Positions 7,610 through 30,344 of a stretch of 64,000 bases of DNA are shown here, in pieces; the first letter of the stretch is position 1, and each line of letters opens with the position of its first letter. A program made the position numbers and the translations under genes. Origin of the DNA: a virus (Duplodnaviria > Heunggongvirae > Uroviricota > Caudoviricetes); IMG/VR virus record IMGVR_UViG_3300021431_000083. One strand, 5' to 3'. Under the pieces are notes generated by a model. The model saw nothing but the letters and a program-made list of their open reading frames with translations, searched no databases and had not been told where the DNA came from.

Positions 7610-8784
7610 TATGACGCCTCTTTCTCTTGATTGTCAATAATATATTTGTTAACCATAGTAAACCTTAATGGCACTACTTCATTTTCTGCTTCAAGTGCGG
7701 CGATACGATCTAACAAACTAGCAATAGTATGCTCAGTGTTGTTTACATTAACAGTTAGGTCACCAGCTAATCACTCATTACCTTGTCAATCTAAAGTACG
7801 GGCATTAGAATATACCGAAGGAGTACCATTACCAATAATTTCTGCATATTTATTATTAGTGTCTCTTAAATTATACTTACCACTAACATGTTGATAATTA
7901 CCATTAGCTATTGTATAATAACCTTCAGCATGACTTGCTTGTCCGTCTGCTGTAGTGCCTACACCTTCAGTATGACTACTTGGACCATTGGCAATAGTGC
8001 CTGTACCTTCAGCGTGACTATAATTACCATTGGCTGTACTTGTCTGTCAAATTATTTTATTATCAAGATCATATATTTCTTCGCCGCCACCTTCAGCGTG
8101 TGAACTTATTCCATTAGCGATAGTACCTTCACCTTCAGCATGAGAATAAATACCATTAGCTATAGTATTGCTACCTTCAGCATGTGAAAAATTACCATTG
8201 GTTATTGCATAATTACCTTCAGCATGAGAAAAAACACCATTAGCTGTTGTAGTATTACCTTCAGCATGAGAAAAACTATTGTTAGCTTTAGTGGCATTAC
8301 CTTCAGCATGAGAAATATAACCATAAGCCATAGTGCCATTACCTTCGGCATGAGAAAAAGTACCATTGGCTACAGTATTGCTACCTTCAGCATGAGAGCC
8401 GGTTCCGTTGGCTTTAGTATAATGACCTTCAGAATGTGAACCTATATTATTAACTTCAGTATAATAACCTTCAGCATGTGAGCCTGTTCCATCGGCTTTA
8501 GTATTATAACCTTCAGCATGTGAAGAAACACCATCAACTATAGTATTGAAACCTTCAGCATGTGAGTTATTACCATTAGCAGTAGCATAAGGGGTCTGTA
8601 CAGAATAATCACCTGTTCCTCAGTCATAAGGGAGAACTGCATCATCCTGTGATACTCATCTGTTTATACCATTTTCTTCTTCAGATATTTCTTTCACAAG
8701 CGGCATCTTAACATTAGCTCCTCCGCCAGAGCCACCACCATAATTTTTATTTTTAATCATAGAGAGTGTTGCTAAATCCATCAT
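7609..8784 (-). CDS. tail-fibre or receptor-binding-like protein with 13-residue SHAEG repeats, 391 aa, needs code 4
   Basis: N-term MMDLATLSMIKNKNYGGGSGGG. Repeated xSHAEGxxTxAxG units. C-terminal GDLTVN region. Several in-frame TGA, including the one at 8047 that splits the track ORF. TAA stop. Confidence 0.55.
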
Positions 8785-9902: not shown

Positions 9903-11126
9903 CTAAACGCTTACAATGTTAGAACTGTAAAAACTCCAATAATTAGCGCTAACAAATGCATTATACAAGCTAGCAGGAACCATAATTTTGCAACTGCTAT
10001 TTGCATATTCTAAGAATCTATTAGATGCGATTGGAACACTTGAAACGTTACGTAAATCAATTATGGACAAAGCATAACAATAATTAAACGCCCCACTAAA
10101 AATATGTGCTAATTTATCCAATTTTATTGATTTTAACTGTGTGCATTCACTAAAGCAGAATAACCCAATTGTTTCAACATTTGGACAGTTGATAGTTGTC
10201 AAAGATGCGCATTGTTGAAAGGCGCCTATACTAAGAGTTGTTGCCTTTTCAAATGATGCATTTTCTAAAATAGAACATCTAAAAAATGCTTGATTATTTA
10301 CGATTGTCGCATTATTCAATACAATACTTTTAACAATCATTGATACAAAAGCATTACTAGCAATGAAAGAAACTGTATCATCTGATACAAGCGATATTTC
10401 TAATCCTTCTGCAATACTTTTTACTTCAATACCGTTAAACGCAACATTCACACTCGCACTCTCAAACGCCCTAACATCATAAACACCGTTGGCTGTGATT
10501 TCGCTAGTACCGCTAACTCGTACATAGTCTGATGGAATATCGCCACCAGTAACCATTACGCTTGCACTCTCAAACGCCCTAACATCATAAACACCGTTGG
10601 CAGTGATTTCGCTAGTGCCTAATGGTTGAATGTAGGTGCTTGGAATTGGGCTAACAATCACGCTACCTATATTAATTGTTCCGTTTTGTGCTACTACTTG
10701 TTGTTCACTTGTTGGTGTCCAAGTCCTACCAGTTGTTCTGCCTAATGGCAGCGTATTTGAGTGAACAGAAAAATCAACATAGCCTGATGGTTGCCGCATT
10801 ATCGCTGTTACTACATTGCCATTTAAAGACATGCTAATATTAGCCAACGGATTCGTTGGAATGCTCATCTGTGCCGATTTAGTACCGCCTGCGACATAAC
10901 CCGCTTGCTGTTCGGCTGTTGCAATCACAGTAGCGCCGCTAAACGCAATACTCGGCGTTGCCTGACTCACACTGGGCATTATACCAGCAATTTTTTCACC
11001 ATTAACATAAGCAGTTGTACCTTCTAATATATCTGCTGCGGTTGCTGTGGCATCTGTAGTATCTATACCACCACCTCCACCGCCTTTCTTTATACATTTT
11101 AATCATGCGAGAGTAGCAATATTCAT
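9903..11126 (-). CDS. leucine-rich-repeat (BspA/LRR_5-like) putative receptor-binding protein, 407 aa, needs code 4 (TGA at codon 8)
   Basis: N-term MNIATLAW(TGA)LKCIKKGGGGGG. Two internal repeats of about 40 aa (TSEITANGVYDVRAFESASV). C-terminal I..SV..IG..AF..C LRR units. Confidence 0.55.
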
Positions 11127-11535
11127 ATAAGCTCCTATCTCAAAAAATTTTACACTATATAATATATAAAATTTATTGTTTTAAAATAATTGTAATTTGA
11201 TATGTTTATATAATCAAAATCCTTACCACCCAAAAGTAGTAAGGATAAATACATAACCCTGGCAGAGCGATAATATACCAGGTTGCTTAGTTTTCGGGGA
11301 TAAGCATATACCACCAGTTCACGCTTTATCGCTGGACGGAATTATTTCGCAGTTCGTAATGCAAAGAGATAATTCAATCTTTAGTAAGTTAGATGTTATA
11401 AAACGGAGAAACTTACCAAAACTCCGGGAGAAGAGGTACATACATTTTAGCATAATCCAAGATACACCGCGTGGAGGTATGTATGTCTAGTATCTCATGC
11501 GGGGCAAGTACCCGCAAGTCTTGCCCCTTCCAATA

Positions 11536-12165
11536 TTACTCATGAACAATATAATGAACAATCTTCTTATTATCAGTAAGAGTAGGCTTAATCATATCAC
11601 CCATATAAAATTTAAGAATATGATTGTTATTCTTACCTCCTATTAGAAGATGATATTCACTACCATCCCAATAATCATTCTCTTGCGGCCAATAGGCAAT
11701 GAAAATTGGAGCTTTACCTTCTTTAAAGTCTTGCTTACTAAATGGAGAACAGCCATTATAACTATAATCATTCTCAGCTTCAAGAATAACCGCATCAAAA
11801 TCAAAATAAATATCAATTACTTTATCAACATATTTATCATATACTCGACCTGCATTATGCTCATAAGGCTGATCATCCCAGTCATCGCCCCAAATATCAT
11901 TGTATTTATCTTGGTCACAACAATACAGCCGCACAACATTGCCCTTAGTTTCCCAGTCACAAATTACGAAATTTTCTATGTTCATATCATATCTTTCCTC
12001 TTGGGTAGAAAAATAAAAATCTGCATACCCCTTTAAGACGCGATCATTAACAGAAGGATTATCATTAATATAATCTATCAACTCGTTTATGTTTTTAAAA
12101 TGCGTAATATGCAATGCATCATTATAAGTATCTTCTAAAGTAATCATTAATAGCTCATCTCGCAA
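11536..12165 (-). CDS. hypothetical protein (209 aa)
   Basis: Intact ORF, TAA stop. Confidence 0.55.
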   Translation of the reverse strand: MRDELLMITLEDTYNDALHITHFKNINELIDYINDNPSVNDRVLKGYADFYFSTQEERYDMNIENFVICDWETKGNVVRLYCCDQDKYNDIWGDDWDDQPYEHNAGRVYDKYVDKVIDIYFDFDAVILEAENDYSYNGCSPFSKQDFKEGKAPIFIAYWPQENDYWDGSEYHLLIGGKNNNHILKFYMGDMIKPTLTDNKKIVHYIVHE

Positions 12166-12674
12166 ACAATGGTTATTTCACCAGGAGCAGGACAATAAAT
12201 ACCATAAGCGTACAAATAAATATCTACTTGCTTCATAAAGTCTTTCAAAGCATTCCGCACAGGTGGCTCAGACATATCATCACTATCAGGCTTACCTAAT
12301 TCATTGTAATTATGCTCTTCCATAGCTATCCAATCTTTATGAGCACAAGCATCACCCTGCGCCCATCCACGCAGTTCAAGGTAGTCATAATACGTACCTT
12401 CATCTACGTTATAAGACCACCCATCACTACCATCGAACCAGTCAGGATGCTCTTCTTTAAGAATATCTACATACCACTCAGGAAGGCCACGACGAGCACC
12501 AATATCCTCAAAGTTATAACCATGACGATTATAACCAAGAAGAAGTTGATTCAGCATTCCATCACGGCTGGGAAAGAGATCATAAAGCTCTTTACCATCT
12601 TTATCATAAAAAGCCAGCTTTTCATACTTGTCATTACATTTACGATATATACTATAAATACCATCAAACCCCAT
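12147..12674 (-). CDS. hypothetical protein (175 aa)
   Basis: Intact ORF, TAA stop. Confidence 0.55.
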   Translation of the reverse strand: MGFDGIYSIYRKCNDKYEKLAFYDKDGKELYDLFPSRDGMLNQLLLGYNRHGYNFEDIGARRGLPEWYVDILKEEHPDWFDGSDGWSYNVDEGTYYDYLELRGWAQGDACAHKDWIAMEEHNYNELGKPDSDDMSEPPVRNALKDFMKQVDIYLYAYGIYCPAPGEITIVCEMSY

Positions 12675-12702
12675 GATAATCTCCTTTCCCTTTTCTATAT
12701 TT

Positions 12703-12740
12703 ATATTATAACATATTTATATGATATTTGTCAATTAAAT
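12703..12740 (-). promoter_or_regulatory. consensus promoter module (approximate)
   Basis: tatattataacatatttatatgatatttgtcaa. Confidence 0.45.
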
Positions 12741-12932
12741 TTATGCTTCACCCACATAGATTTGACTATAATCTGAACCATAATATACATCAAAATAATC
12801 ATTAAAATTTACGTTGTAAGCTACAGGATACAATGTCTTAGACATTTTCTCAATAGCTTGTGCGGGCGATGTGGCACAATGGTGACCTAAAAATTGCTCA
12901 TTTTGATAAATCTTATACTTCTTACCACTCAT
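12741..12932 (-). CDS. hypothetical protein (63 aa)
   Basis: Intact ORF. Confidence 0.4.
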   Translation of the reverse strand: MSGKKYKIYQNEQFLGHHCATSPAQAIEKMSKTLYPVAYNVNFNDYFDVYYGSDYSQIYVGEA

Positions 12933-12942
12933 TTATTCTCCT

Positions 12943-13905
12943 TTATCTTCCCATACTTTCAGGAAATTTTTTCCAACTAATTAAATTTTCAAGTTCCTCA
13001 ATCTTTTTGCGAGCTTGTATCAATTCAAGTTCAAGACTATTTGTTGTTATACCAGACTTTCCTTCAATTAATTCTTTGGTAAGACTACGGCTGATTAAAT
13101 CATAAAGAGTTTTATCCAAGAGAGAATCCATTGAAGGATCATTCTCATTAGGACAATCTTTGCGGAAATCATCAGCTATTTTAACAATGCTTTCCATTAA
13201 TTCATCTGCTTTAATTTCCGCTTGTTCTTTAGATAATCCCCATCCATTCCGTTTACACTCCAAGAGAGAATCACGAATATTGCTATTTTTAAGATAAATA
13301 CAATCTTTATAAGGTCTACCTTCGATATACCACTTAATAAAATAATTAATGCGGGCTAGGTGTGATAACTGCTTTGGGTCATATCCAAATTTTTCAATCC
13401 AGGGCATGCGGCTTGGGTATTCATGGCACAAAGCATGTCGTTTCTCACTCGCCATACCTTTCATACAAGAAACTGCGGCATAAGGATTAATCCTTGCCAA
13501 CTCTTCCGCATTCGCCCGCAACCTATTCCAAAGATCATAATACTTATTGTTTACAATAAAATAATCAGTAAATAGAATCTCAACAAAATTAATATTTGAC
13601 TTGCGGAAAATCTTAAAGTACTCCCGCACATCCTTACAATCAACATGCTCTTGGTTATCTGGCATTTCAAGAGTATGGCTAATTGGTTTGTGGTTAAGTA
13701 CAATATCTTCTAACGAAGGAATAACTAATACTTTAGAATCAATATCAGACTCCGCATCAGCCATATTGTAATTTTGACTCCCCTGTAAACAAATAACAAA
13801 CCAATCTTTGTTATAAGTAGTTATATAATGAAAAAGATGTTCATGCAAACGTTTATTAATGTCAATATCATTTAAATATGGCATTACTATCTCCTTTAAA
13901 AGCAC
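12943..13905 (-). CDS. pol-beta-superfamily nucleotidyltransferase-like protein
   Basis: G-S-x(11)-D-x-D signature: GSQNYNMADAESDIDSKV. TAA stop. Confidence 0.45.
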   Translation of the reverse strand: MLLKEIVMPYLNDIDINKRLHEHLFHYITTYNKDWFVICLQGSQNYNMADAESDIDSKVLVIPSLEDIVLNHKPISHTLEMPDNQEHVDCKDVREYFKIFRKSNINFVEILFTDYFIVNNKYYDLWNRLRANAEELARINPYAAVSCMKGMASEKRHALCHEYPSRMPWIEKFGYDPKQLSHLARINYFIKWYIEGRPYKDCIYLKNSNIRDSLLECKRNGWGLSKEQAEIKADELMESIVKIADDFRKDCPNENDPSMDSLLDKTLYDLISRSLTKELIEGKSGITTNSLELELIQARKKIEELENLISWKKFPESMGR

Positions 13906-16702: not shown

Positions 16703-16796
16703 TGCGGAAGATGCAAGATTTGAACTTGCACTAGAATTCTCGTCCTAGGCTACGCATTAGCAGTGCGACACTTTACCATTCAGTCAATCTTCCATA
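16703..16796 (-). tRNA. tRNA-Ser(GCU), type II with a long variable arm
   Basis: Acceptor GGAAGAT/ATCTTCC. Anticodon loop CTGCTAA. T-arm GCAAG-TTCAAAT-CTTGC. Confidence 0.6.
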
Positions 16797-17100
16797 GAAA
16801 ATATCGCGGGTGGCGCCTTTACGCACTTTATCAGGACTCGCAACCTGCCGCTGGAAAACCCGCTTCTTTTGGTTCACCGGAGAAGCTCTTTGCCTATGAT
16901 TACAAACCGGTTTATAATATTCTCGGAGGGTCTACCATTTACACCCTAACTCGCTTACCGAGTTCGCATGAGCTTCAGCATTCAATTAGATCTGTCACCA
17001 TCTTTATGGCGCTTTCTTTATACCACTTATCATGTGGCTGCGGTGACTAGTACGCATTTAGGAAAAGAAAGCATAAGAAAACCCTCCTACTCAGTAATTA

Positions 17101-17175
17101 TATAGTCTGGAGTCGAACCAGTGTCTCTCTGGGCATAACCATAAGCGCTCTACCGTTAAGCTATCTCTATAACAC
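17101..17175 (-). ncRNA. tRNA-like element (D-arm GCTTAACGGTAGAGC, T-loop TTCGACT). No canonical acceptor or anticodon pairing found by hand.
   Basis: Partial cloverleaf only. May be a pseudo-tRNA, a split tRNA, or part of a larger structured RNA. Confidence 0.3.
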
Positions 17176-17400
17176 CTTTCGTTCGCTACTTACCCCGTCG
17201 GACTTTCGCTACACACCTAGGTTTTATTAATGTGTCTGCAGGTGTATTAGACACTCCAGCAGCTTTTTACGTCTTCACTTTATTTGGACAGCTACCTTCC
17301 GCAGTAGTATGGCGACATGACTTTCGTTGAAGAGGACTGCCGCAAGCGAACATTATACACCAATGATTTTTATCTTCCTGGTTCCATCACCCTTCACAGA

Positions 17401-17470
17401 CAGCCAGATTGGACTCGAACCAATACCCTAGCCCTTGCGGGCCGATGCTGACCAATTACACCACCAGCTA
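17401..17470 (-). ncRNA. tRNA-like element: acceptor with G-U pairs, T-arm ATTGG-TTCGAGT-CCAAT, but a GCCC-GCAA-GGGC GNRA hairpin where the anticodon arm should be
   Basis: 70 nt. Not a standard tRNA. Confidence 0.3.
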
Positions 17471-17871
17471 TCTCCAGTTTACTTTCACCTGTGCTATGAA
17501 TGTTTTTAGAGCGCCATTATTTCTATAGCGGAGGCCAGTGGTACAAACATCATAACCATATCTTCCCGCTTGATAGTTTAGTTTGAAAGGACTATCAACC
17601 TTATGTGAGAATGGAAAACCCATCTCTTTCGCACTTCGTTTTAGAAAACGAATAATTAAACATTCTTACCTTCGACTTAGGTTTACTCGGTACGTGCCTT
17701 CTCGTTGTATCCCGACCAATTCCTGTGGTAGCTACTCCACACTCACGTTTTTCGCTATGGGTACCTCTTCCCCACCCGCGTCTAGGCCGTCTCTCTGAGC
17801 AGTTTCTGCAGTCATACTCTCAGTTGATATTGGCGAGAATGTTTAACTTTCCCTTTTCTTTATATATATAT

Positions 17872-17912
17872 TATAACATATTTTTTATTCAGTTGTCAAG
17901 TTTTATTTTAAG
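17872..17912 (-). promoter_or_regulatory. consensus promoter module (approximate). It points into the noncoding island and tRNA-Ser.
   Basis: atatattataacatattttttattcagttgtcaa. Confidence 0.45.
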
Positions 17913-17992
17913 GCTTGGTTATTTTTCCCTTTAAACTAACCGCCCTTCTACAGGACAGTGACTGATTCGAACAATCATCTCCCTTACCTTAT

Positions 17993-18030
17993 ATATATAT
18001 TATAGCATAAAAATTGAACAATCGTCAACA
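17993..18030 (-). promoter_or_regulatory. consensus promoter module (approximate), in tandem with the previous one
   Basis: atatattatagcataaaaattgaacaatcgtcaa. Confidence 0.45.
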
Positions 18031-18113
18031 AATATTTTTAAACAAGTCTTGCCGCGCTTAAACGATCAGCCCACAAGAGGACCGAGCCTGAGTCGAACAG
18101 GCATTTGTTTATA

Positions 18114-22449: not shown

Positions 22450-22812
22450 TTATTCATTATAAGTATAAGTTACTTTTTCAGGAATCCATAAATATGGCCA
22501 TCCAATAAAATCGTCTAAAGTAACAACAATAAAGAAATCTTTTCCAACTTCTTTACACAATTGCGGTAAAATTACACTATGCATGTAATGATAATGTTCA
22601 CTTTTTTCTTCTTCACTCATATTAAAAAAATTACTGTCTATATCATATTCAAAATAATCTTCGTCATAGTATTTTCCGCCATGCCATGCTTTAAAACGCA
22701 TATATGGAATTTTAACAGTAACTAACATAATTCTCCTTTGGTCGCGGAGGGTGCTAAATATATTGCCATTTATATCCATAAGCAGTTTTTCTTTTTCCTC
22801 TACACACTCCAC
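22450..22812 (-). CDS. hypothetical protein (120 aa); start uncertain because it overlaps the next gene
   Basis: Intact ORF. Confidence 0.4.
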   Translation of the reverse strand: MECVEEKEKLLMDINGNIFSTLRDQRRIMLVTVKIPYMRFKAWHGGKYYDEDYFEYDIDSNFFNMSEEEKSEHYHYMHSVILPQLCKEVGKDFFIVVTLDDFIGWPYLWIPEKVTYTYNE

Positions 22813-23365
22813 TTATATGAGAACTACTATCAGGTTTATTAATAAATCTCGCAGCTTCTCTCGTAGATTTAAAAGTTTTTATAATCTCATTTGTTTTTAT
22901 ATCAATCATCGCAACAGCTTTCTGCTGCTGTTCTTGAACAGAAGGAATCAGAACATTAAATTCTTTACAAGCAGTTCTAACAGTATTTTTAGAACAATTA
23001 AAATAATCTTGGACCTTTTTTGAGTTTTTTAATTCTTTCATTTTATTTGCTATAGCTTCATAATCATAATAGCGTCTACTATCTCCACCTAAAGTAGCGT
23101 TATATCCATTATTATAAGTATCTAATTTTTGAATCCAATATTGTTCACGTTCATTTAGATCTTTTTCATCACATTCTTCTAATTTATTAATAATGAAATT
23201 ATCTACTCCATATTTATTTAAAGCTCTACAAATCGGTCTAGTTTGATTTTGTTTATATTTAGCATCATGTTGATGCATCTGCCATCTGCGATGAATAGAT
23301 TGACAAGTTTGTCCCACATACTGTTTTTTATTTATTTTATTCGTTATAACATAAATAAAACCCAT
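22754..23365 (-). CDS. GIY-YIG homing endonuclease (I-TevI-like)
   Basis: N-term GFIYVITNKINKKQYVGQT (GIY ... YVG). Basic C-terminal DNA-binding region. Sits directly beside the tRNA cluster. Confidence 0.6.
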   Translation of the reverse strand: MGFIYVITNKINKKQYVGQTCQSIHRRWQMHQHDAKYKQNQTRPICRALNKYGVDNFIINKLEECDEKDLNEREQYWIQKLDTYNNGYNATLGGDSRRYYDYEAIANKMKELKNSKKVQDYFNCSKNTVRTACKEFNVLIPSVQEQQQKAVAMIDIKTNEIIKTFKSTREAARFINKPDSSSHISGVCRGKRKTAYGYKWQYI

Positions 23366-23502: not shown

Positions 23503-23575
23503 GGTCGCTATGGAAGGTAACGCTCCTCCGTCTTGGCGTTATCAGCACCCTGCTCTACTTTTGAGCTACATAGCG
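23503..23575 (-). tRNA. tRNA-Ile(GAU)
   Basis: Acceptor CGCTATG/CATAGCG. D-arm GCTC-AAAAGTA-GAGC. Anticodon loop CTGATAA. Unusual T-loop AGCGTTA. Confidence 0.5.
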
Positions 23576-23708: not shown

Positions 23709-23794
23709 CTACGGATGGTGGGACTCGAACCCACAAACCTTGCGGCAACGGATTTTGAGTCCGTCGTGTTTGCCAATTTCACCACACCCGCACT
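23709..23794 (-). tRNA. tRNA-Leu(CAA), type II
   Basis: Acceptor GCGGGTG/CATCCGT. Anticodon arm ACGGA-CTCAAAA-TCCGT. Long variable arm. T-arm GTGGG-TTCGAGT-CCCAC. Confidence 0.55.
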
Positions 23795-23988
23795 TAAGAT
23801 TCAATTAATTTAAATTGAGTTGTATAATAAGTACCGCAATGGTCACATTGACCACTACCATACTTTAATTCAAAAGAAGCACCACACTTAGGACAAGTTA
23901 TAGGATATACTTCTACAATTTCACATTTAAGAGCATATGTTTTACCACCAAAAGAAATTTTACTTATATATCCATCAACTTGTTCCAT
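23794..23988 (-). CDS. small zinc-ribbon protein (CPKCG ... CDHCG). Start moved to the internal Met (MEQVDGY) to avoid the tRNA.
   Basis: The track ORF 23794..24045 runs into tRNA-Met. Confidence 0.4.
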   Translation of the reverse strand: MEQVDGYISKISFGGKTYALKCEIVEVYPITCPKCGASFELKYGSGQCDHCGTYYTTQFKLIES

Positions 23989-24011
23989 ATGTAATCCTTT
24001 ATATAGTGAGA

Positions 24012-24086
24012 TGGTGCGGGAGACAGGAGTTGAACCTGCTTCCAATCGATTATGAGTCGAGTGCTCTACCGTTGAGCTTCTCCCGC
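24012..24086 (-). tRNA. tRNA-Met (CAU), second copy; possibly the initiator or elongator partner of the first
   Basis: Acceptor GCGGGAG/CTCCCGC. D-arm GCTC-AACGGTA-GAGC. Anticodon loop CTCATAA. T-arm CAGG-TTCAACT-CCTG. Confidence 0.55.
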
Positions 24087-24087
24087 A

Positions 24088-24175
24088 TGGTCCCGCGTCT
24101 AGGTAACGCTCCTAGCCAGCATTAAAGCAACAGTTTTACAGACTGCCCCGTGTCTTTAACGGAATACCGCGGGAT
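24088..24175 (-). tRNA. tRNA-Tyr(GUA), type II
   Basis: Anticodon arm GCAGT-CTGTAAA-ACTGT. 14-nt variable arm. T-arm CTAGG-AGCGTTA-CCTAG. CCA encoded. Confidence 0.45.
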
Positions 24176-24176
24176 A

Positions 24177-24251
24177 TGGCCAGGCGTACGGGAATCGAAC
24201 CCGTGATAATGGTTAGACAGACCATTGTGATAACCGCTTCACTAACGCCCG
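24177..24251 (-). tRNA. tRNA-Asp(GUC)
   Basis: Acceptor CGGGCGT/ACGCCTG. D-arm GTGA-AGCGGTTA-TCAC. Anticodon arm ATGGT-CTGTCTA-ACCAT. T-arm ACGGG-TTCGATT-CCCGT. Confidence 0.65.
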
Positions 24252-24253
24252 AC

Positions 24254-24329
24254 TGGAGCTGGCGACAGGAATCGAACCCGCAACCTAGTGATTACAAATC
24301 ACTTGCGCTACCTATTGCGCCACGCCAGC
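24254..24329 (-). tRNA. tRNA-Thr(UGU)
   Basis: Acceptor GCTGGCG/CGCCAGC. D-arm GCGC-AATAGGTA-GCGC. Anticodon arm AGTGA-TTTGTAA-TCACT. T-arm GCGGG-TTCGATT-CCTGT. Confidence 0.65.
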
Positions 24330-25619
24330 AAAATAAAAGCGTTGGGTAAGGTGTAACGCGACCACCGCATGTAAAATTATTTTATGTCTAATCGACATGC
24401 TCGCAAAGACAGTAGGATTGCTCCTTTTGGAAGATATATCTATTATGGCTGATATGACTTTAAATATATATAAATATATCCTCCAAAAGAAGATACTTTC
24501 ATAGGAACCACCCTCATCGTAGAGAAAGTATAAACTACAGAAGGTTCTAACGCTCTTAACCTACAAGCGATCTTTACTTTACGCATAGACTTGCGGCAAG
24601 ATCATTACCCTATCCTGCATGGGATGTACTTGATTTCGTTCAAACACATAAAGACGGAAATCATTTTGGTTCAGGTGATTTCAAAACCAGAAAACCACAA
24701 TTTTATTTTATAGTCTAATTGGTTCATACTAGACTGGCATTAAGTACGCCTAAGAAAACATTTTATAAATGTTCTCTAAGGCATAAACTGTTTATCAGTT
24801 ATTTCAGCCCTTTAAGCTACACTAGAGAGTATGTTAGGCTACTCTCTTTTTATATACCCTGCCTAACCAGAGACGCCGTTTTATTTAATGACGCGAACGG
24901 ACTAGGAACTTGGTAATCACCTTACGGTATCCGCCATTTTCCATACCACTTAATTTCTTAAGGGCTATTACGTCAATTCCTTCAAACAGAATAGTTGAAG
25001 ATATACATGCCAGCCTTCGCTGTACCGCATCTATTTACTGGATATTCGATCACGCAGGAGATAAGGCTGAGTATGTCGGAGCGACCGTCATACTTCTTAC
25101 CCCAGCCGTTAAGGCCATCTCTACTGTAGGAGTGATTACCTACAACTTTCACACGTCATTCAGCATTAATATATTCTCCTAAATATTCATTGATATAAGG
25201 AGCTGCTTTGTGCTACTCGAACCTTGCTCTTGTCTTATTCTTTCTGTTACCAGAAAGTCAACAGCTCAATCTCCTTATTGGTATTTCCAGCTTTCTCTTA
25301 TTCAGCACCACCTGTTAATAAGTGTTCTGGATTCTTCCCCACTGGGGCGTCTATTGCGGAGACGACAATTTGCAAGTATCTTTCCTTAGCAAATAGACTA
25401 AGCGCATTCTTCATTTTGTTGGTAGTTCCTACCTTCTAAAGCAAACCTCACGATTCACCTTAAAGCCACACAGCCAAGTATCCCAGACTGTATAAACTCA
25501 TTGAGAAGAACCCTCAGCACGTTGACACCGCTCTGCACTGAGTTGCACCTAAATCTTCAACTATTCTGTTTTCAAAGTTCTTAGGTTAAGAAACCTAATA
25601 TTAACTCTCTCAACCTTAT

Positions 25620-25662
25620 ATATTTATTATATCATATTTTCTTTTCAATTGTCAAGAAAAAT
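25620..25662 (-). promoter_or_regulatory. consensus promoter module, 1 of 3 in tandem, pointing into the 24.3-25.6 kb noncoding island and the tRNA cluster
   Basis: tatttattatatcatattttcttttcaattgtcaa. Confidence 0.45.
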
Positions 25663-25797: not shown

Positions 25798-25842
25798 TAT
25801 ATATATTATATCATATTTATAAAACCATTGTCAATAAAAATT
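25798..25842 (-). promoter_or_regulatory. consensus promoter module, 2 of 3 in tandem
   Basis: atatattatatcatatttataaaaccattgtcaa. Confidence 0.45.
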
Positions 25843-25925
25843 TTTAACAGCTGAAAGATTTTAAATCTTTCTTATTTTATATAAAAACTGAAAAACTTTT
25901 TTTATCCCCTTTTGATAAATATATT

Positions 25926-25962
25926 ATATCATATTTTCTTTGCGGCCGTCAATAAAAACTTT
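25926..25962 (-). promoter_or_regulatory. consensus promoter module, 3 of 3 in tandem
   Basis: atatattatatcatattttctttgcggccgtcaa. Confidence 0.45.
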
Positions 25963-25971
25963 TAGTTACAT

Positions 25972-26544
25972 TCATTCAAATTCAAATTTACATTGTATAT
26001 AATACCATTTAATATCCTCAATAATGGCATCTATATTTACAGGACAACAATCATGAGCATCAACCGCAACGTTATAAGATTGCCATCCTCTATCCATAAA
26101 CTCATATCTATTTTGAGAATGAGTATGACCATGAAGATTCCAAACACGAGCTCTTAAAGGCTTATCATAATCATCATAATTTGCGGTTAACGTAGGATAA
26201 TGCGATAAAAGAAAATGCCATTTCTTATATTTAAGCATTCCAGAATATCCAAAACCTTCAACTAAACTAGGTAAATCCCAATACAATTGTTTTCTAACAT
26301 CACTATCATGATTGCCCCAAAAGACATGTAGCTTGCCATTGAGCCGCCGCAAACAATTTAAACCATGTTCATTATCACCAAGCATCTGATCACCCAAGAG
26401 AAAGAGATCATCATCAGGCCGCACAATACTATTAAATCTTTCAATGATTGCTTCATCATGCTTTTGGATATTAGAAAATCCTCGCGGCTTATAGATAAAA
26501 TCTCTGTCATGACCGAAGTGTAAATCTGAACAAACATATAACAT
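25972..26544 (-). CDS. calcineurin-like metallophosphoesterase
   Basis: Motifs DLHFGHD, GDQMLGD, GNHD, GHTH. Confidence 0.6.
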   Translation of the reverse strand: MLYVCSDLHFGHDRDFIYKPRGFSNIQKHDEAIIERFNSIVRPDDDLFLLGDQMLGDNEHGLNCLRRLNGKLHVFWGNHDSDVRKQLYWDLPSLVEGFGYSGMLKYKKWHFLLSHYPTLTANYDDYDKPLRARVWNLHGHTHSQNRYEFMDRGWQSYNVAVDAHDCCPVNIDAIIEDIKWYYIQCKFEFE

Positions 26545-27039
26545 TTAATCTACCCTCCAGACATAATCAAAACCTTCGCTATCCTCAACAGGCTGATATG
26601 CTTCAATCATGCGGTTCATAGCATCAGCAGGGACGACTCTATCACGTTTCTTATTACGATAAACAGCATCCAACATTGATGTATTCATCTGAACCGCAAT
26701 AAATTTACAATCTAAATCTTTAAGGTGATTGCGGCATTTGCGACGAGATTTCTTGGTCAGATGTGTTGCATCAAGAATTACATCACTACCATTTTTGATA
26801 GCTTCACGAGCACGCTCATAAAAAATATCAAAAACAACACCATTAAGAGATTGATTACTGGCATCACCGCAAAGCTCTTCACGAATATCATCAGAAGAGA
26901 TATAGACTCGACTGCGCCAAGGATGATCCATCAATACGTTCTTACAAAAATAACTCTTTCCGCTGCCAGGCACGCCGCACATAATGTATACAACAGGCTT
27001 ACGCAGTTGACGACGAATACCCTCATCACATTGAGTCAT
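26545..27039 (-). CDS. P-loop kinase (polynucleotide or nucleotide kinase-like)
   Basis: Walker A GVPGSGKS. Adjacent to a phosphoesterase and a ligase. Confidence 0.55.
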   Translation of the reverse strand: MTQCDEGIRRQLRKPVVYIMCGVPGSGKSYFCKNVLMDHPWRSRVYISSDDIREELCGDASNQSLNGVVFDIFYERAREAIKNGSDVILDATHLTKKSRRKCRNHLKDLDCKFIAVQMNTSMLDAVYRNKKRDRVVPADAMNRMIEAYQPVEDSEGFDYVWRVD

Positions 27040-27061: not shown

Positions 27062-27098
27062 ATAATATTATAACATAATTATATTATAGCTGTCAACT
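27062..27098 (-). promoter_or_regulatory. consensus promoter module (approximate)
   Basis: aatattataacataattatattatagctgtcaa. Confidence 0.4.
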
Positions 27099-28362
27099 AA
27101 GAGTTCATAACTTGCGTTAATTCGATATAATCAATCATATCTCCGTACTTAACACCACGGAAATAATCAACCTTCTGGCCTAAGAATTTAGCACGTACTG
27201 CTCCTTGATACCGCTTAGGCACAACTTTATCAACAGCAATCATAAAAGTCTTGCGATCATCAGTATAATCTACGAAATCACGAGTAAGATTATACCACTT
27301 CATAACACGTTCATCGAACATTTGTACGTACTTATAAACATTATCAGCCTTTTCCTTAGCTTGCGGTTGATATGCAACAGGAATCTTTGAATAAAAATCA
27401 TCCCAACGACCTTCACGAATAGCTGCAATTATAGCGTTGGGAGAAACCATCTTACAAAGAGCATGGTGGAGCATAACATAATCATTATACTTGAGCTTAT
27501 ACTTCTGTCCGTCTACATCAATAACATATCCCTCACCCTCATTAGCCTTACGACCATCATTAAGGGCATCCTGATAAGCTTCTTCAAAAGTCATATCAAA
27601 AATTTTAACATGCGGCACATCATACTTTTCTGCGACTTCTACAACATCCTTATAAGGTAGTTCTACACCATCCTCTACTCGTCGCATTCCAAGTAAATGC
27701 AAACCGAACATTTGTTCGTTATATTGTACAACATGAACATCATCAGGGAAAATACCTTCAAAAATGAAAGTATAATCTCGATAATCCTTTACCATCTGTA
27801 CAGCATTATTATGACTAAACATCCAATGATAATAATTAGCAAGACGATAAGACATATTGGTATCAAGAGCTTGTGACCCAGACATTACCAAATCATTCTT
27901 ATACCAACGAGCACTACAAAGAGAACCGTCAAGCTTATCAGTAATTTCTACTCGGGCCGCATTCTCTATCTTCTCTTGGACTATAGGAAGCTGAGTCTCT
28001 TCTCGCTCATTAATATTAAAGAATTTGCGGAATGGAGTAAGAATAAGACAATCATTAAGTACATCAATTACAACTGAACGACACTCACGATAAAAACCAT
28101 CATAAGCATCCCAGTCAATATCAAGATCATTATACTTAATAAGTAGCATACCCATGCTTTCATTGAGAAGCAAGGGTTCAATCATCTTAGAATAATAATG
28201 ACGCTTAGGATGACCATGATTTCCGAGAGTCCATACCCAATAGGAAAGACAATTAGTAAAGGAATCATCGCGGCCATACTGCCACAAAGCATCCTTGCCG
28301 CACACCTTAACAAATTCATTCTTTACTTCAGTGAAAAAATCTAAAGGTTGATTCCAAGACAT
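27097..28362 (-). CDS. ATP-dependent RNA ligase (Rnl1-like)
   Basis: Motif I KLDGS (T4 Rnl1 has KEDGS). Motif IV EGYVI. Motif V KLK. Confidence 0.55.
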   Translation of the reverse strand: MSWNQPLDFFTEVKNEFVKVCGKDALWQYGRDDSFTNCLSYWVWTLGNHGHPKRHYYSKMIEPLLLNESMGMLLIKYNDLDIDWDAYDGFYRECRSVVIDVLNDCLILTPFRKFFNINEREETQLPIVQEKIENAARVEITDKLDGSLCSARWYKNDLVMSGSQALDTNMSYRLANYYHWMFSHNNAVQMVKDYRDYTFIFEGIFPDDVHVVQYNEQMFGLHLLGMRRVEDGVELPYKDVVEVAEKYDVPHVKIFDMTFEEAYQDALNDGRKANEGEGYVIDVDGQKYKLKYNDYVMLHHALCKMVSPNAIIAAIREGRWDDFYSKIPVAYQPQAKEKADNVYKYVQMFDERVMKWYNLTRDFVDYTDDRKTFMIAVDKVVPKRYQGAVRAKFLGQKVDYFRGVKYGDMIDYIELTQVMNS

Positions 28363-29417: not shown

Positions 29418-30344
29418 TTACATCAACCCTAGAAACTTGCGGCCTTCTGCTTTAATCAAGCCATTAAGTGCGGCAAAGTCGATTTGAGGATTCTTAGCAC
29501 GTTTACAAAAATCTACAATATTCTCCTCAAGAGTATCCTTCCAAAGTAAATTAAGAAACATACCAATAAATTTGCCATTACCAGGAACATACTCTTCACC
29601 GCAAGCCAGGGCAGTTTTAGCCTTAGCTTTCTCAAGCTCAGATTGAGTCAGATAGCGATTAATGAAATCTTGTTCAACTTCGCCAGCCTGAACAATTCTC
29701 TTTACTCTTGGAGTGTCAGGTCTAAAATCTTCCCGTACATATTTTGCTACAGCATAGCGTCCATAGCAATTTACATAATTGTCTCTACGAATCACAACAC
29801 CCTCTCCAAGAGTATCAGTTCCTTCAAGAAGAAAAGTATTCTCATTCGCAACCTTGATAATATCTTCAAGTGTAGGATTAGTTAACGTGGCAAGAAGTTT
29901 TACACGATAATGAAGTAGATCATACATAATAAGTGCAGCTTCAAGCTCATCCCAGGTTAGATATTTTTCAGTTTCACGATTGTAAATATCAAAAATCCAA
30001 AGTTTATTTGCAGCTTGTTCAGTATACTTTTTTATTGCACCAACTTTTCCTACTGACCATTCTCCATAAATAATCCAATTAGGATTAGCTTGACATGCTT
30101 TAACAAGCAATTGAGCTTCTAATCTTTTAGATTCCATCCAAGCGGCAAAACCAGCATTGTCATTCTCAATAGAAATTTCACGTTTGCGGCTACCATAACG
30201 CATACGACCATCTTCATCTGCCCATACACAACTATTACAACCATCAAGCTTGGCCGTGATTTTTACTTCACCATTTAAAATATTATCAACTTCTGTTTTT
30301 CCTAAACGTTCAACGTGAAGGTAAGGTCTAAAACAATTGGTCAT
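29418..30344 (-). CDS. ATP-dependent polynucleotide ligase (second nucleotidyltransferase-family ligase)
   Basis: Motif I KLDGC. Motif IV EGVVIRR. 308 aa. Confidence 0.5.
   Translation of the reverse strand: MTNCFRPYLHVERLGKTEVDNILNGEVKITAKLDGCNSCVWADEDGRMRYGSRKREISIENDNAGFAAWMESKRLEAQLLVKACQANPNWIIYGEWSVGKVGAIKKYTEQAANKLWIFDIYNRETEKYLTWDELEAALIMYDLLHYRVKLLATLTNPTLEDIIKVANENTFLLEGTDTLGEGVVIRRDNYVNCYGRYAVAKYVREDFRPDTPRVKRIVQAGEVEQDFINRYLTQSELEKAKAKTALACGEEYVPGNGKFIGMFLNLLWKDTLEENIVDFCKRAKNPQIDFAALNGLIKAEGRKFLGLM

Follow-up and report, generated by a model that had tools for sequence, protein, structure and literature searches.

The subject of this analysis is a noncoding island in a phage of the Caudoviricetes (IMG/VR record IMGVR_UViG_3300021431_000083), studied in a window of 64,000 nucleotides (nt) that is the whole stretch of DNA analysed. 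The island occupies positions 24330-25620 on the minus strand, with stacked promoters on its upstream side and an array of tRNA genes on its downstream side. Its upstream half (24991-25566) can be placed securely in the ROOL family of ornate RNAs. Its downstream half (24330-24990) is an extension of about 660 nt that lies directly 3' of ROOL and is modular, structured, and conserved.

The minus strand of the island holds about 1.3 kb without a plausible coding sequence under genetic codes 11, 4 and 15. On this strand, the longest open reading frame (ORF) that has a start codon encodes 56 amino acids (aa), which bears out an earlier note on this DNA that had seen only short ORFs here. The same note had put the GC content at 40-45%. 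This describes the ROOL half (42.5%), but not the island as a whole (38.8%) or its downstream half (36.5%); for comparison, the window stands at 34.5% and the promoter stretch at 25.1%.

A scan of the whole window with Rfam 15, a check that the earlier note had itself proposed, returned a full-length ROOL RNA (RF03087) of 576 nt in the upstream half, on the minus strand. It scores 334.5 bits, where the gathering threshold is 99.1 (E 2.4e-76), and the match runs over model positions 1-574, that is, 574/574, without truncation. Three identities had been offered for the transcript. One of these, a long noncoding RNA (ncRNA), was the correct one, half of it being a described family; for another, a degenerate intron or ribozyme, no intron or ribozyme family matched at permissive Rfam thresholds.

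ROOL was described in 2017 as an ornate RNA of about 581 nt from rumen metagenomes, often near tRNAs and in prophages (PMC5737381). In vitro, as cryo-electron microscopy (cryo-EM) shows, eight copies of the RNA assemble into a hollow cage that measures about 28 nm and has a disordered linker inside (PMC12286853), and homo-oligomeric cages, hexamers or octamers, have been seen by cryo-EM for other members of the family (PMC12286853, PMC12990946). A 2026 review finds ROOL often inside tRNA arrays and still without an assigned function (PMC12990946). The RNA encoded here resembles known ROOL RNAs in being full length (about 576 nt), in its multi-junction covarying fold, and in being noncoding and phage-borne (the window contains a tape-measure gene, and related contigs are found in IMG/VR). 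It also has a tRNA array nearby, 13 tRNAs beginning 661 nt downstream, and promoters of a strength in keeping with reports that one bacterial ROOL is very highly abundant. Unlike the family model, it carries a structured 3' extension outside that model, and its closing helix P1 is longer and in a different register.

Thirteen relatives of the locus were assembled for comparison. Two are IMG/VR contigs found through the neighbouring RNA ligase and phosphoesterase, seven are metagenomic contigs found through phosphoesterase homologues (60-69% identity), and four came from a DNA pattern scan. ROOL is complete in 12 of these 13; the remaining one, L053, is a fragment with the ROOL 3' end only. Conservation of the island in relatives, another check that had been called for, was thus found, and the core of the first module of the extension is present in every one of them. 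The phosphoesterase of the window recurs unchanged on nine contigs, eight of them of 50-200 kb, and the source lineage, an uncultured phage of about 140 kb, turns up repeatedly, in many rumen-type assemblies. When the island was compared by blastn, in near and distant modes, with 50,697 deposited phage genomes, nothing matched, and no cultured relative was found among them at blastn sensitivity. A scan for the nearly invariant pattern of module B, described below, returned only the two known contigs among viral contigs and four more of the same lineage in metagenomes; in bacterial and archaeal genomes it returned none, and identified no prophage or host. A more distant phage, L006, whose phosphoesterase is 49% identical, has no detected ROOL; in the corresponding place upstream of its tRNA array, at 10528-12962, lie about 2.4 kb in which the plus strand has no frame of at least 70 aa.

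The fold of the ROOL half was examined by transferring the Rfam structure (155 pairs) from the window onto a MAFFT alignment of 13 lineage members. Controls were made by sliding helix partners by 1-3 columns. Here, 39 of the 155 pairs changed on both sides, against 5-17 in the slid controls, and 76.3% of cells were paired, against 38-48%. That pairing falls short of completeness is mainly due to P1, which has a different register in this lineage and is 7 bp longer, AAACAGA (25573-25567) pairing with UCUGUUU (24990-24984) to add seven positions on each side. One relative, L048, shows several compensating changes along this helix.

The modules of the extension are taken here in 5' to 3' order, all on the minus strand. 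Module A/B (24819-24990) comprises a UGACG/CGUCA stem and a pseudoknot, PK-B, together with an inserted domain (24904-24967) of a type that the window shares with L046, L050, L052, L053 and L055. PK-B is an H-type pseudoknot in which S1 pairs GUUAGGC (24867-24861) with GCCUAAC (24839-24833) in a hairpin loop, and S2, the stem of that hairpin, pairs AGAGAGU (24847-24841) with ACUCUCU (24830-24824). Both are paired in 14/14 loci. S1 has a compensatory variant in L052 (AUUAGGC/GCCUAAU), and S2 appears elsewhere as GAGGGC/GCCCUC, GAGAAU/AUUCUC, GAGGAU/AUCCUC and AGAGAUAU/AUAUCUCU. The module also contains a pattern of 22 bases, with one free position, that is identical in all 14 lineage loci (the 13 relatives and the window), whose ROOL domains differ by up to 21%.

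Module C (24693-24818) consists of three hairpins, namely AACUG/CAGUU, a long one with UAUGCCUUAGAG, and AGUCUAGU/AUUAGACU, followed by AUAAAAUAAAAU; compensatory changes occur at columns 387/393, 411/427 and 453/470 of alignment A2. A second H-type pseudoknot, PK-D1 (24657-24692), comes next. Its S1 pairs UUCUGG (24692-24687) with CCUGAA (24675-24670), 85% paired with two covarying pairs, and its S2 pairs GAAAU (24682-24678) with AUUUC (24661-24657), 100% paired with four of five pairs covarying. In PK-B and PK-D1 alike, therefore, both helices that define an H-type pseudoknot show covariation. Modules D and E (24421-24656) are conserved blocks and hairpins, among them a hairpin of 72 nt (24492-24421) with a conserved loop UCAUAUCAGCCAUAA, a variable apex, and a base that is 98.5% paired. 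Module F (24330-24420) is the 3' end of the conserved RNA. It carries a terminal hairpin, GCGUU (24359-24355) with AACGC (24343-24339), which is 100% paired with covariation in three of five pairs and has a loop of 11 nt; behind it, a U tract (24338-24330) reaches right up to the start of tRNA-Thr. In a candidate long-range helix, UUGCCGC of module D would pair with GCGGUGG close to the 3' end; this helix is 98% paired, with changes on one side only.

Seven named helices of modules C-F (41 pairs) were tested in an alignment of the distal part of seven sequences. In these, 96.7% of cells were paired against 45-57% in slid controls, and 12 pairs had changed on both sides against 0-5, in a test where the helices were derived partly from the same sequences. 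The extension of the window is also more stable than its shuffles (z = -4.6). Nothing in Rfam accounts for it. At E<=10 no family matched, the only hits being chance miRNA hits on the long AU-rich hairpin, and permissive scans of the longer extensions of L048 and L001 likewise gave chance miRNA-hairpin hits only.

Compared across ten relatives, the modules of the extension form a mosaic, marked by large insertions and deletions. The extension ranges from 170 nt, which is module A/B, to about 1150 nt in L048, and a hairpin module has been duplicated in L002, L049 and L048. Modules C-F are found only where a tRNA array, or a remnant of one, follows. In L050 and L051 the promoters, ROOL and module A/B are kept and a protein gene, not tRNAs, stands downstream; L051 has a canonical terminator 15 nt after module A/B. 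The ROOL RNA is thus a unit of its own. Where blocks of the extension are shared, they are 85-93% identical in DNA among the window, L001 and L002, while the protein of the adjacent phosphoesterase is only 63-77% identical in these contigs. The extension was sought by blastn and with an nhmmer profile beside 30 unrelated ROOL loci from IMG/VR, at which the distance from ROOL to the closest tRNAs is usually 5-270 nt, and was found at none of them. This means that it is specific to the lineage, rather than a part of the family that has been overlooked.

Promoters were scored against TTGACA-18-TATAAT with an extended -10 TG, over 12 positions. Three copies are stacked within 330 nt on the minus strand: P1, the proximal one (25626-25655), and P2, the middle one (25805-25834), each match 12/12 with an 18-nt spacer and TG, and P3, the distal one (25923-25952), matches 11/12 as TTGACG-18-TATAAT with TG. 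All lie inside the ranges that the earlier note had given for three consensus promoters, and all point into the island. The core idea of that note, a strongly promoted noncoding RNA gene, was right. A stricter form of the motif, TTGAC-N16-TGNTATAAT, has 12 copies in the window, where 0.01 would be expected by chance; all 12 are on the minus strand and all 12 lie below 27.1 kb. The motif is the early promoter consensus of the phage, of the sigma-70 type.

To judge from the spacing to the -10 element, transcription from P1 would start near 25619. This leaves a 5' leader of about 46 nt (25574-25619, minus strand) whose 5' end, AAGGUUGAGAGAGUUAAU, is conserved and which contains a hairpin, UUAGGUUUCUUAACCUAA; in relatives, extra hairpins are inserted in this region. 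Two further pairings of the leader were considered and rejected, one between the conserved leader segment GAGAGAGU and the ACUCUCU strand of module B, the other a leader-trailer helix beyond the extended P1 of ROOL. Neither finds support, the changes in L048, L049 and L056 being non-compensatory.

As a rule, members of the lineage have tandem promoters in the interval from the phosphoesterase stop codon to ROOL. Nine of ten relatives checked have them; L050 has one promoter. Their number is mostly two, spaced by about 122-133 nt, and three only in the window and L048. P3 has orthologues in nearly all relatives (L001, L002, L046-L052), and the distal promoter with its first transcribed bases (TATAATATATTTATCAAAAGGGGATAA) is orthologous throughout the lineage. 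P2 stands where relatives have their ROOL-proximal promoter, and an insertion of about 179 nt, specific to the window and carrying the further copy P1, separates P2 from P1. Three stacked promoters are thus, by this alignment of positions, a local elaboration of a conserved tandem arrangement. In L001, L002, L047, L049, L051 and L052 the distal promoter is followed by a hairpin, GGGGAUAA/UUAUCCCC, and a U run (alignment A7, columns 104-175), which could attenuate or terminate transcripts from that promoter. In the window the 3' half of this hairpin is lost, and another small hairpin, unlike it, lies at about 25877-25859.

At its other end the island runs straight into tRNAs, again on the minus strand. 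tRNA-Thr(UGU) (24254-24329) starts one base after the island and is followed by tRNA-Asp(GUC) (24177-24251), an element of 90 nt resembling tRNA-Tyr(GUA) (24087-24176), and tRNA-Met(CAU) (24012-24086). The earlier note had listed tRNA-Thr, Asp, Tyr and Met at this place. Thr, Asp and Met are called by ARAGORN and Rfam; the Tyr-like element is called neither by ARAGORN nor by the Rfam tRNA model at E<=10, yet it folds into a cloverleaf whose anticodon loop reads GUA, and relatives conserve it. Between island and tRNA-Thr there is no room for a promoter, and a terminator scan of the minus strand from ROOL to tRNA-Thr called no terminator-like site, the hairpin and U tract of module F included. 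The tRNAs are, therefore, probably read from the same promoters as ROOL. Within the extension, two 9/12 matches that might have served as promoters for the tRNAs (24502-24473 and 24406-24379) are not conserved as promoters in relatives.

Several lineage tRNAs have the T-loop AGCGUUA in place of the canonical UUCRANU, among them an Ile-GAU, the Tyr-GUA-like element, and one more in L001. In the window these loops belong to elements at 23505-23575 and 24087-24176 (minus strand), and in relatives hits lie at 10885 and 12165 in L054, 14782 and 14856 in L001, 8401 and 9535 in L049, and 9568 in L048. T-stems of this type covary, and the D-loops of the two window elements have no GG. ARAGORN misses both window elements, and Rfam misses the Tyr-like one entirely. 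Such elements may have a non-canonical tRNA elbow. The heptamer AGCGTTA itself occurs 5 times in the window, where 6.8 copies would be expected, and so is not enriched. The array also contains a homing-endonuclease gene of the GIY-YIG type with NUMOD1 (22754-23365, minus strand), consistent with the mosaic make-up of the array among relatives. Between tRNA-Met and tRNA-Leu lies an ORF of 83 aa (23794-24045, minus strand) with a zinc-ribbon-like CxxC...CxxC arrangement (CPKC, CDHC) and no Pfam match.

Upstream of the promoters stand genes of an RNA-repair type, all on the minus strand and conserved as neighbours in the lineage: a metallophosphoesterase (25972-26544), an AAA_33 kinase resembling polynucleotide kinase (26545-27039), an RNA ligase like T4 Rnl1 (27097-28362), and an ORF of 308 aa (29418-30344) whose orthologues are annotated as PF09414 RNA ligase. 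The gene order is PF09414 RNA ligase, DUF6440, small ORFs, Rnl1-like ligase, AAA_33 kinase, metallophosphoesterase, promoters, ROOL. In a comparison that set aside the four pattern-scan contigs, this order is kept in L001, L002, L044 and L046-L052 as far as their sequence reaches, L046 being without a kinase call. In the collection of papers searched, none connected ROOL to RNA ligases.

What, then, is the island? Known here is the ROOL family in its typical setting. New are the conserved, pseudoknot-rich 3' extension, previously undescribed, the conserved tandem promoters and the conserved RNA-repair neighbourhood. On the explanation that fits best, the phage encodes in this island a ROOL RNA whose structured 3' extension is peculiar to the lineage, a reading to which we give a probability of about 80%. 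Here, two to three tandem consensus early promoters of the sigma-70 type would drive a transcript that starts near 25619 and upstream. It would consist of the leader of about 46 nt, the 576-nt ROOL domain, about 660 nt of pseudoknot-rich modules, and then the covarying hairpin and U tract, and it would read on into the tRNA array. Cleavage by RNase P at the 5' end of tRNA-Thr would release a ROOL-plus-tail RNA of about 1.25 kb, whose 3' end the terminal hairpin might protect. The ROOL domain presumably assembles itself into a homo-octameric cage, as other ROOL RNAs do in cryo-EM. By analogy with engineered 3' fusions, the tail, if it stays attached, would project radially outward in eight copies. 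Both its attachment to the cage and its co-transcription with the tRNAs are, of course, things that we infer.

That analogy comes from Ling et al. (Nature 2025), as summarised in PMC12515178, where 3' fusions to ROOL, among them a tRNA precursor, were displayed radially and left assembly undisturbed. Like those constructs, the RNA of this phage has a ROOL domain with a folded RNA directly 3' of it; unlike them, the arrangement is natural, conserved and far longer. Other stable-RNA systems offer more general parallels. rRNA operons also place tandem strong promoters (P1/P2) ahead of a highly expressed stable RNA, with no sequence relation to the present locus. GOLLD is a large RNA cage of phages and prophages that lies near tRNAs and sometimes has tRNAs embedded in its linker. 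It shares with the island an ornate architecture of conserved and variable parts and a physical linkage to phage tRNA arrays, but its sequence and fold are unrelated. At the gathering threshold the window yielded no match to GOLLD, and none came up at permissive thresholds in 24300-25020 (E<=10) or in another noncoding island of the window.

That other island, the first along the window (16794-18113, minus strand), has tandem consensus promoters of its own (18028-17999 and 17899-17870), followed by about 1.1 kb for which no Rfam family was found at E<=1. At 17400-17470 it contains a tRNA-like element whose anticodon arm is replaced by a tetraloop hairpin, GGCCC-GCAA-GGGCU, and to which ARAGORN assigns an “anticodon” of 2 nt; a second tRNA-like element (27 bits) lies at 17099-17170. 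By appearance, this island encodes another large ncRNA under strong promoters, one reminiscent of GOLLD in the tRNA-like parts embedded in it.

Several observations weigh against a ROOL RNA with one long functional tail. The Rfam structure, as transferred, is only 76% paired, owing to the shifted register of P1 and to differences in a few helices. The covariation was all observed within a single narrow lineage of 13 loci, several of them nearly identical, so that independent events are few. The extension is partly dispensable, module E being absent from L049, modules D-E from L047, and modules C-F from L050 and L051; such modularity and partial loss make a single integrated domain less plausible. 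The terminal hairpin is weak taken alone (-5.2 kcal/mol, z = +0.5) and fails the terminator scan, which leaves its role as a 3' end or stabiliser uncertain. Transcription, RNA ends and processing are all deduced from the DNA. As to the repair-type cassette, tblastn did not find its proteins beside the 30 unrelated ROOL loci, whose flanks are short. It is treated, therefore, as synteny within the lineage rather than an association of the whole family, and its link to ROOL may be plain synteny.

The rival that survives best accepts the ROOL gene and holds that the extension is a set of separate small stable RNAs, or processing elements, cut from a ROOL-tRNA precursor. The tRNA gene cluster of phage T4 gives the precedent, with extra stable RNAs of about 140 nt that are co-transcribed with tRNAs and released by processing. 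In both cases a stable noncoding RNA accompanies phage tRNAs, but there is no relation in sequence and the T4 RNAs are not ROOL-like. Much in the extension would suit this view: the module subsets differ among relatives, a hairpin module is duplicated in three of them, the supported helices are mostly local, and modules C-F are confined to loci with tRNAs or their remnant. Yet module A/B is joined to ROOL in every relative, and in L051 it stands ahead of the terminator, which counts against separate RNAs for this module at least. The candidate long-range helix between modules D and F also speaks for a larger whole, and no known small RNA family matches. We regard separate RNAs as possible, though decidedly the weaker account.

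A bolder extension of the preferred reading goes the other way. Here, the extension is a new class of ornate domain that stays on ROOL, and the cage displays on its outside eight copies of it and, until processing, the nascent tRNA array. This we consider improbable.

About equally unlikely is the view that the extension is decayed material of the tRNA array, pseudo-tRNAs and scars of mobile elements, that is transcribed as a spacer and has no function of its own. It does head an array that contains a homing endonuclease, large indels do set the relatives apart, and one of its hairpin loops has AGCGUUA, the heptamer of the odd T-loops of the Ile and Tyr-like elements. However, no cloverleaf was recognised in 24330-24990 by ARAGORN or, down to E<=10, by the Rfam model for tRNA. 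Nor does decay sit easily with a DNA identity above that expected from the divergence of the neighbouring protein, with helices and two pseudoknots kept intact by compensatory changes, or with a pattern of 22 bases that is the same in 14 loci whose ROOL domains are not.

The earlier note had also offered a pre-tRNA operon leader. In its pure form, the island would be a mere long 5' leader that loads RNA polymerase and feeds pre-tRNAs, the ROOL match being incidental. The immediate junction with tRNA-Thr agrees with this, and that part of the proposal stands to the extent that the tRNAs probably use the same promoters. But 334 bits over a full model of 574 positions are not incidental, and L050 and L051 keep promoters, ROOL and module A/B ahead of protein genes. 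Together, the match and these loci without tRNAs refute the strong form, and little likelihood is left to the remainder.

Least likely of all, and refuted, is a protein gene on the minus strand in a non-standard code: TGA is apparently a sense codon in late genes of the phage, where long frames open at 37.8-63.6 kb, but a code-4 coding sequence, sought here as the earlier note had asked, is absent from 24330-25620 (the longest frame, 84 codons at 24961-25212, lies mostly within ROOL), the longest code-15 frame (121 aa) overlaps the tRNAs, the longest stop-to-stop frame under code 11 (82 aa, 24315-24560) runs 15 nt into tRNA-Thr, indels between relatives are not multiples of three, and substitutions track base pairing rather than codon positions.

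The recoding itself deserves a word. On the minus strand at 37878-63560, frames of 2920, 1245, 2858 and 1133 codons contain 39, 21, 17 and 16 in-frame TGAs, respectively. Long frames at 14-31 kb have at most one, but in some that lie further upstream, such as 7612-8784, the number is as high as five. With TGA as a sense codon, frames of 100 codons or more cover 80% of the minus strand of the window instead of 62%. This suggests a code-4-like recoding of late genes. A tRNA with a UCA anticodon was not found in the window.

For annotation, the message is the smaller one, as the island is largely explained by a known family. As to the biology, the cassette and the tRNA array together hint at a possible role for this RNA in the management of phage tRNAs or translation during early infection; more narrowly, with ligases, a kinase, a phosphoesterase and a tRNA array on its flanks, it may reasonably be guessed to act in the supply or protection of tRNAs. 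On the bolder reading judged improbable above, the cage would be a platform that concentrates or shields phage tRNAs, or, alternatively, the tail could recruit the adjacent RNA ligase, kinase and phosphoesterase and so help against host defences that cleave tRNA.

ROOL is one of very few natural cages made of RNA only. In this lineage, nature presents a case where the cage-forming domain is fused at its 3' side to a long, conserved, pseudoknotted RNA and a tRNA array, behind unusually strong tandem promoters and with RNA-repair genes adjoining. It is, thus, a useful natural system in which to ask what ROOL cages do: what the tail binds, whether it is retained on the cage, and whether the maturation or protection of tRNAs requires it.

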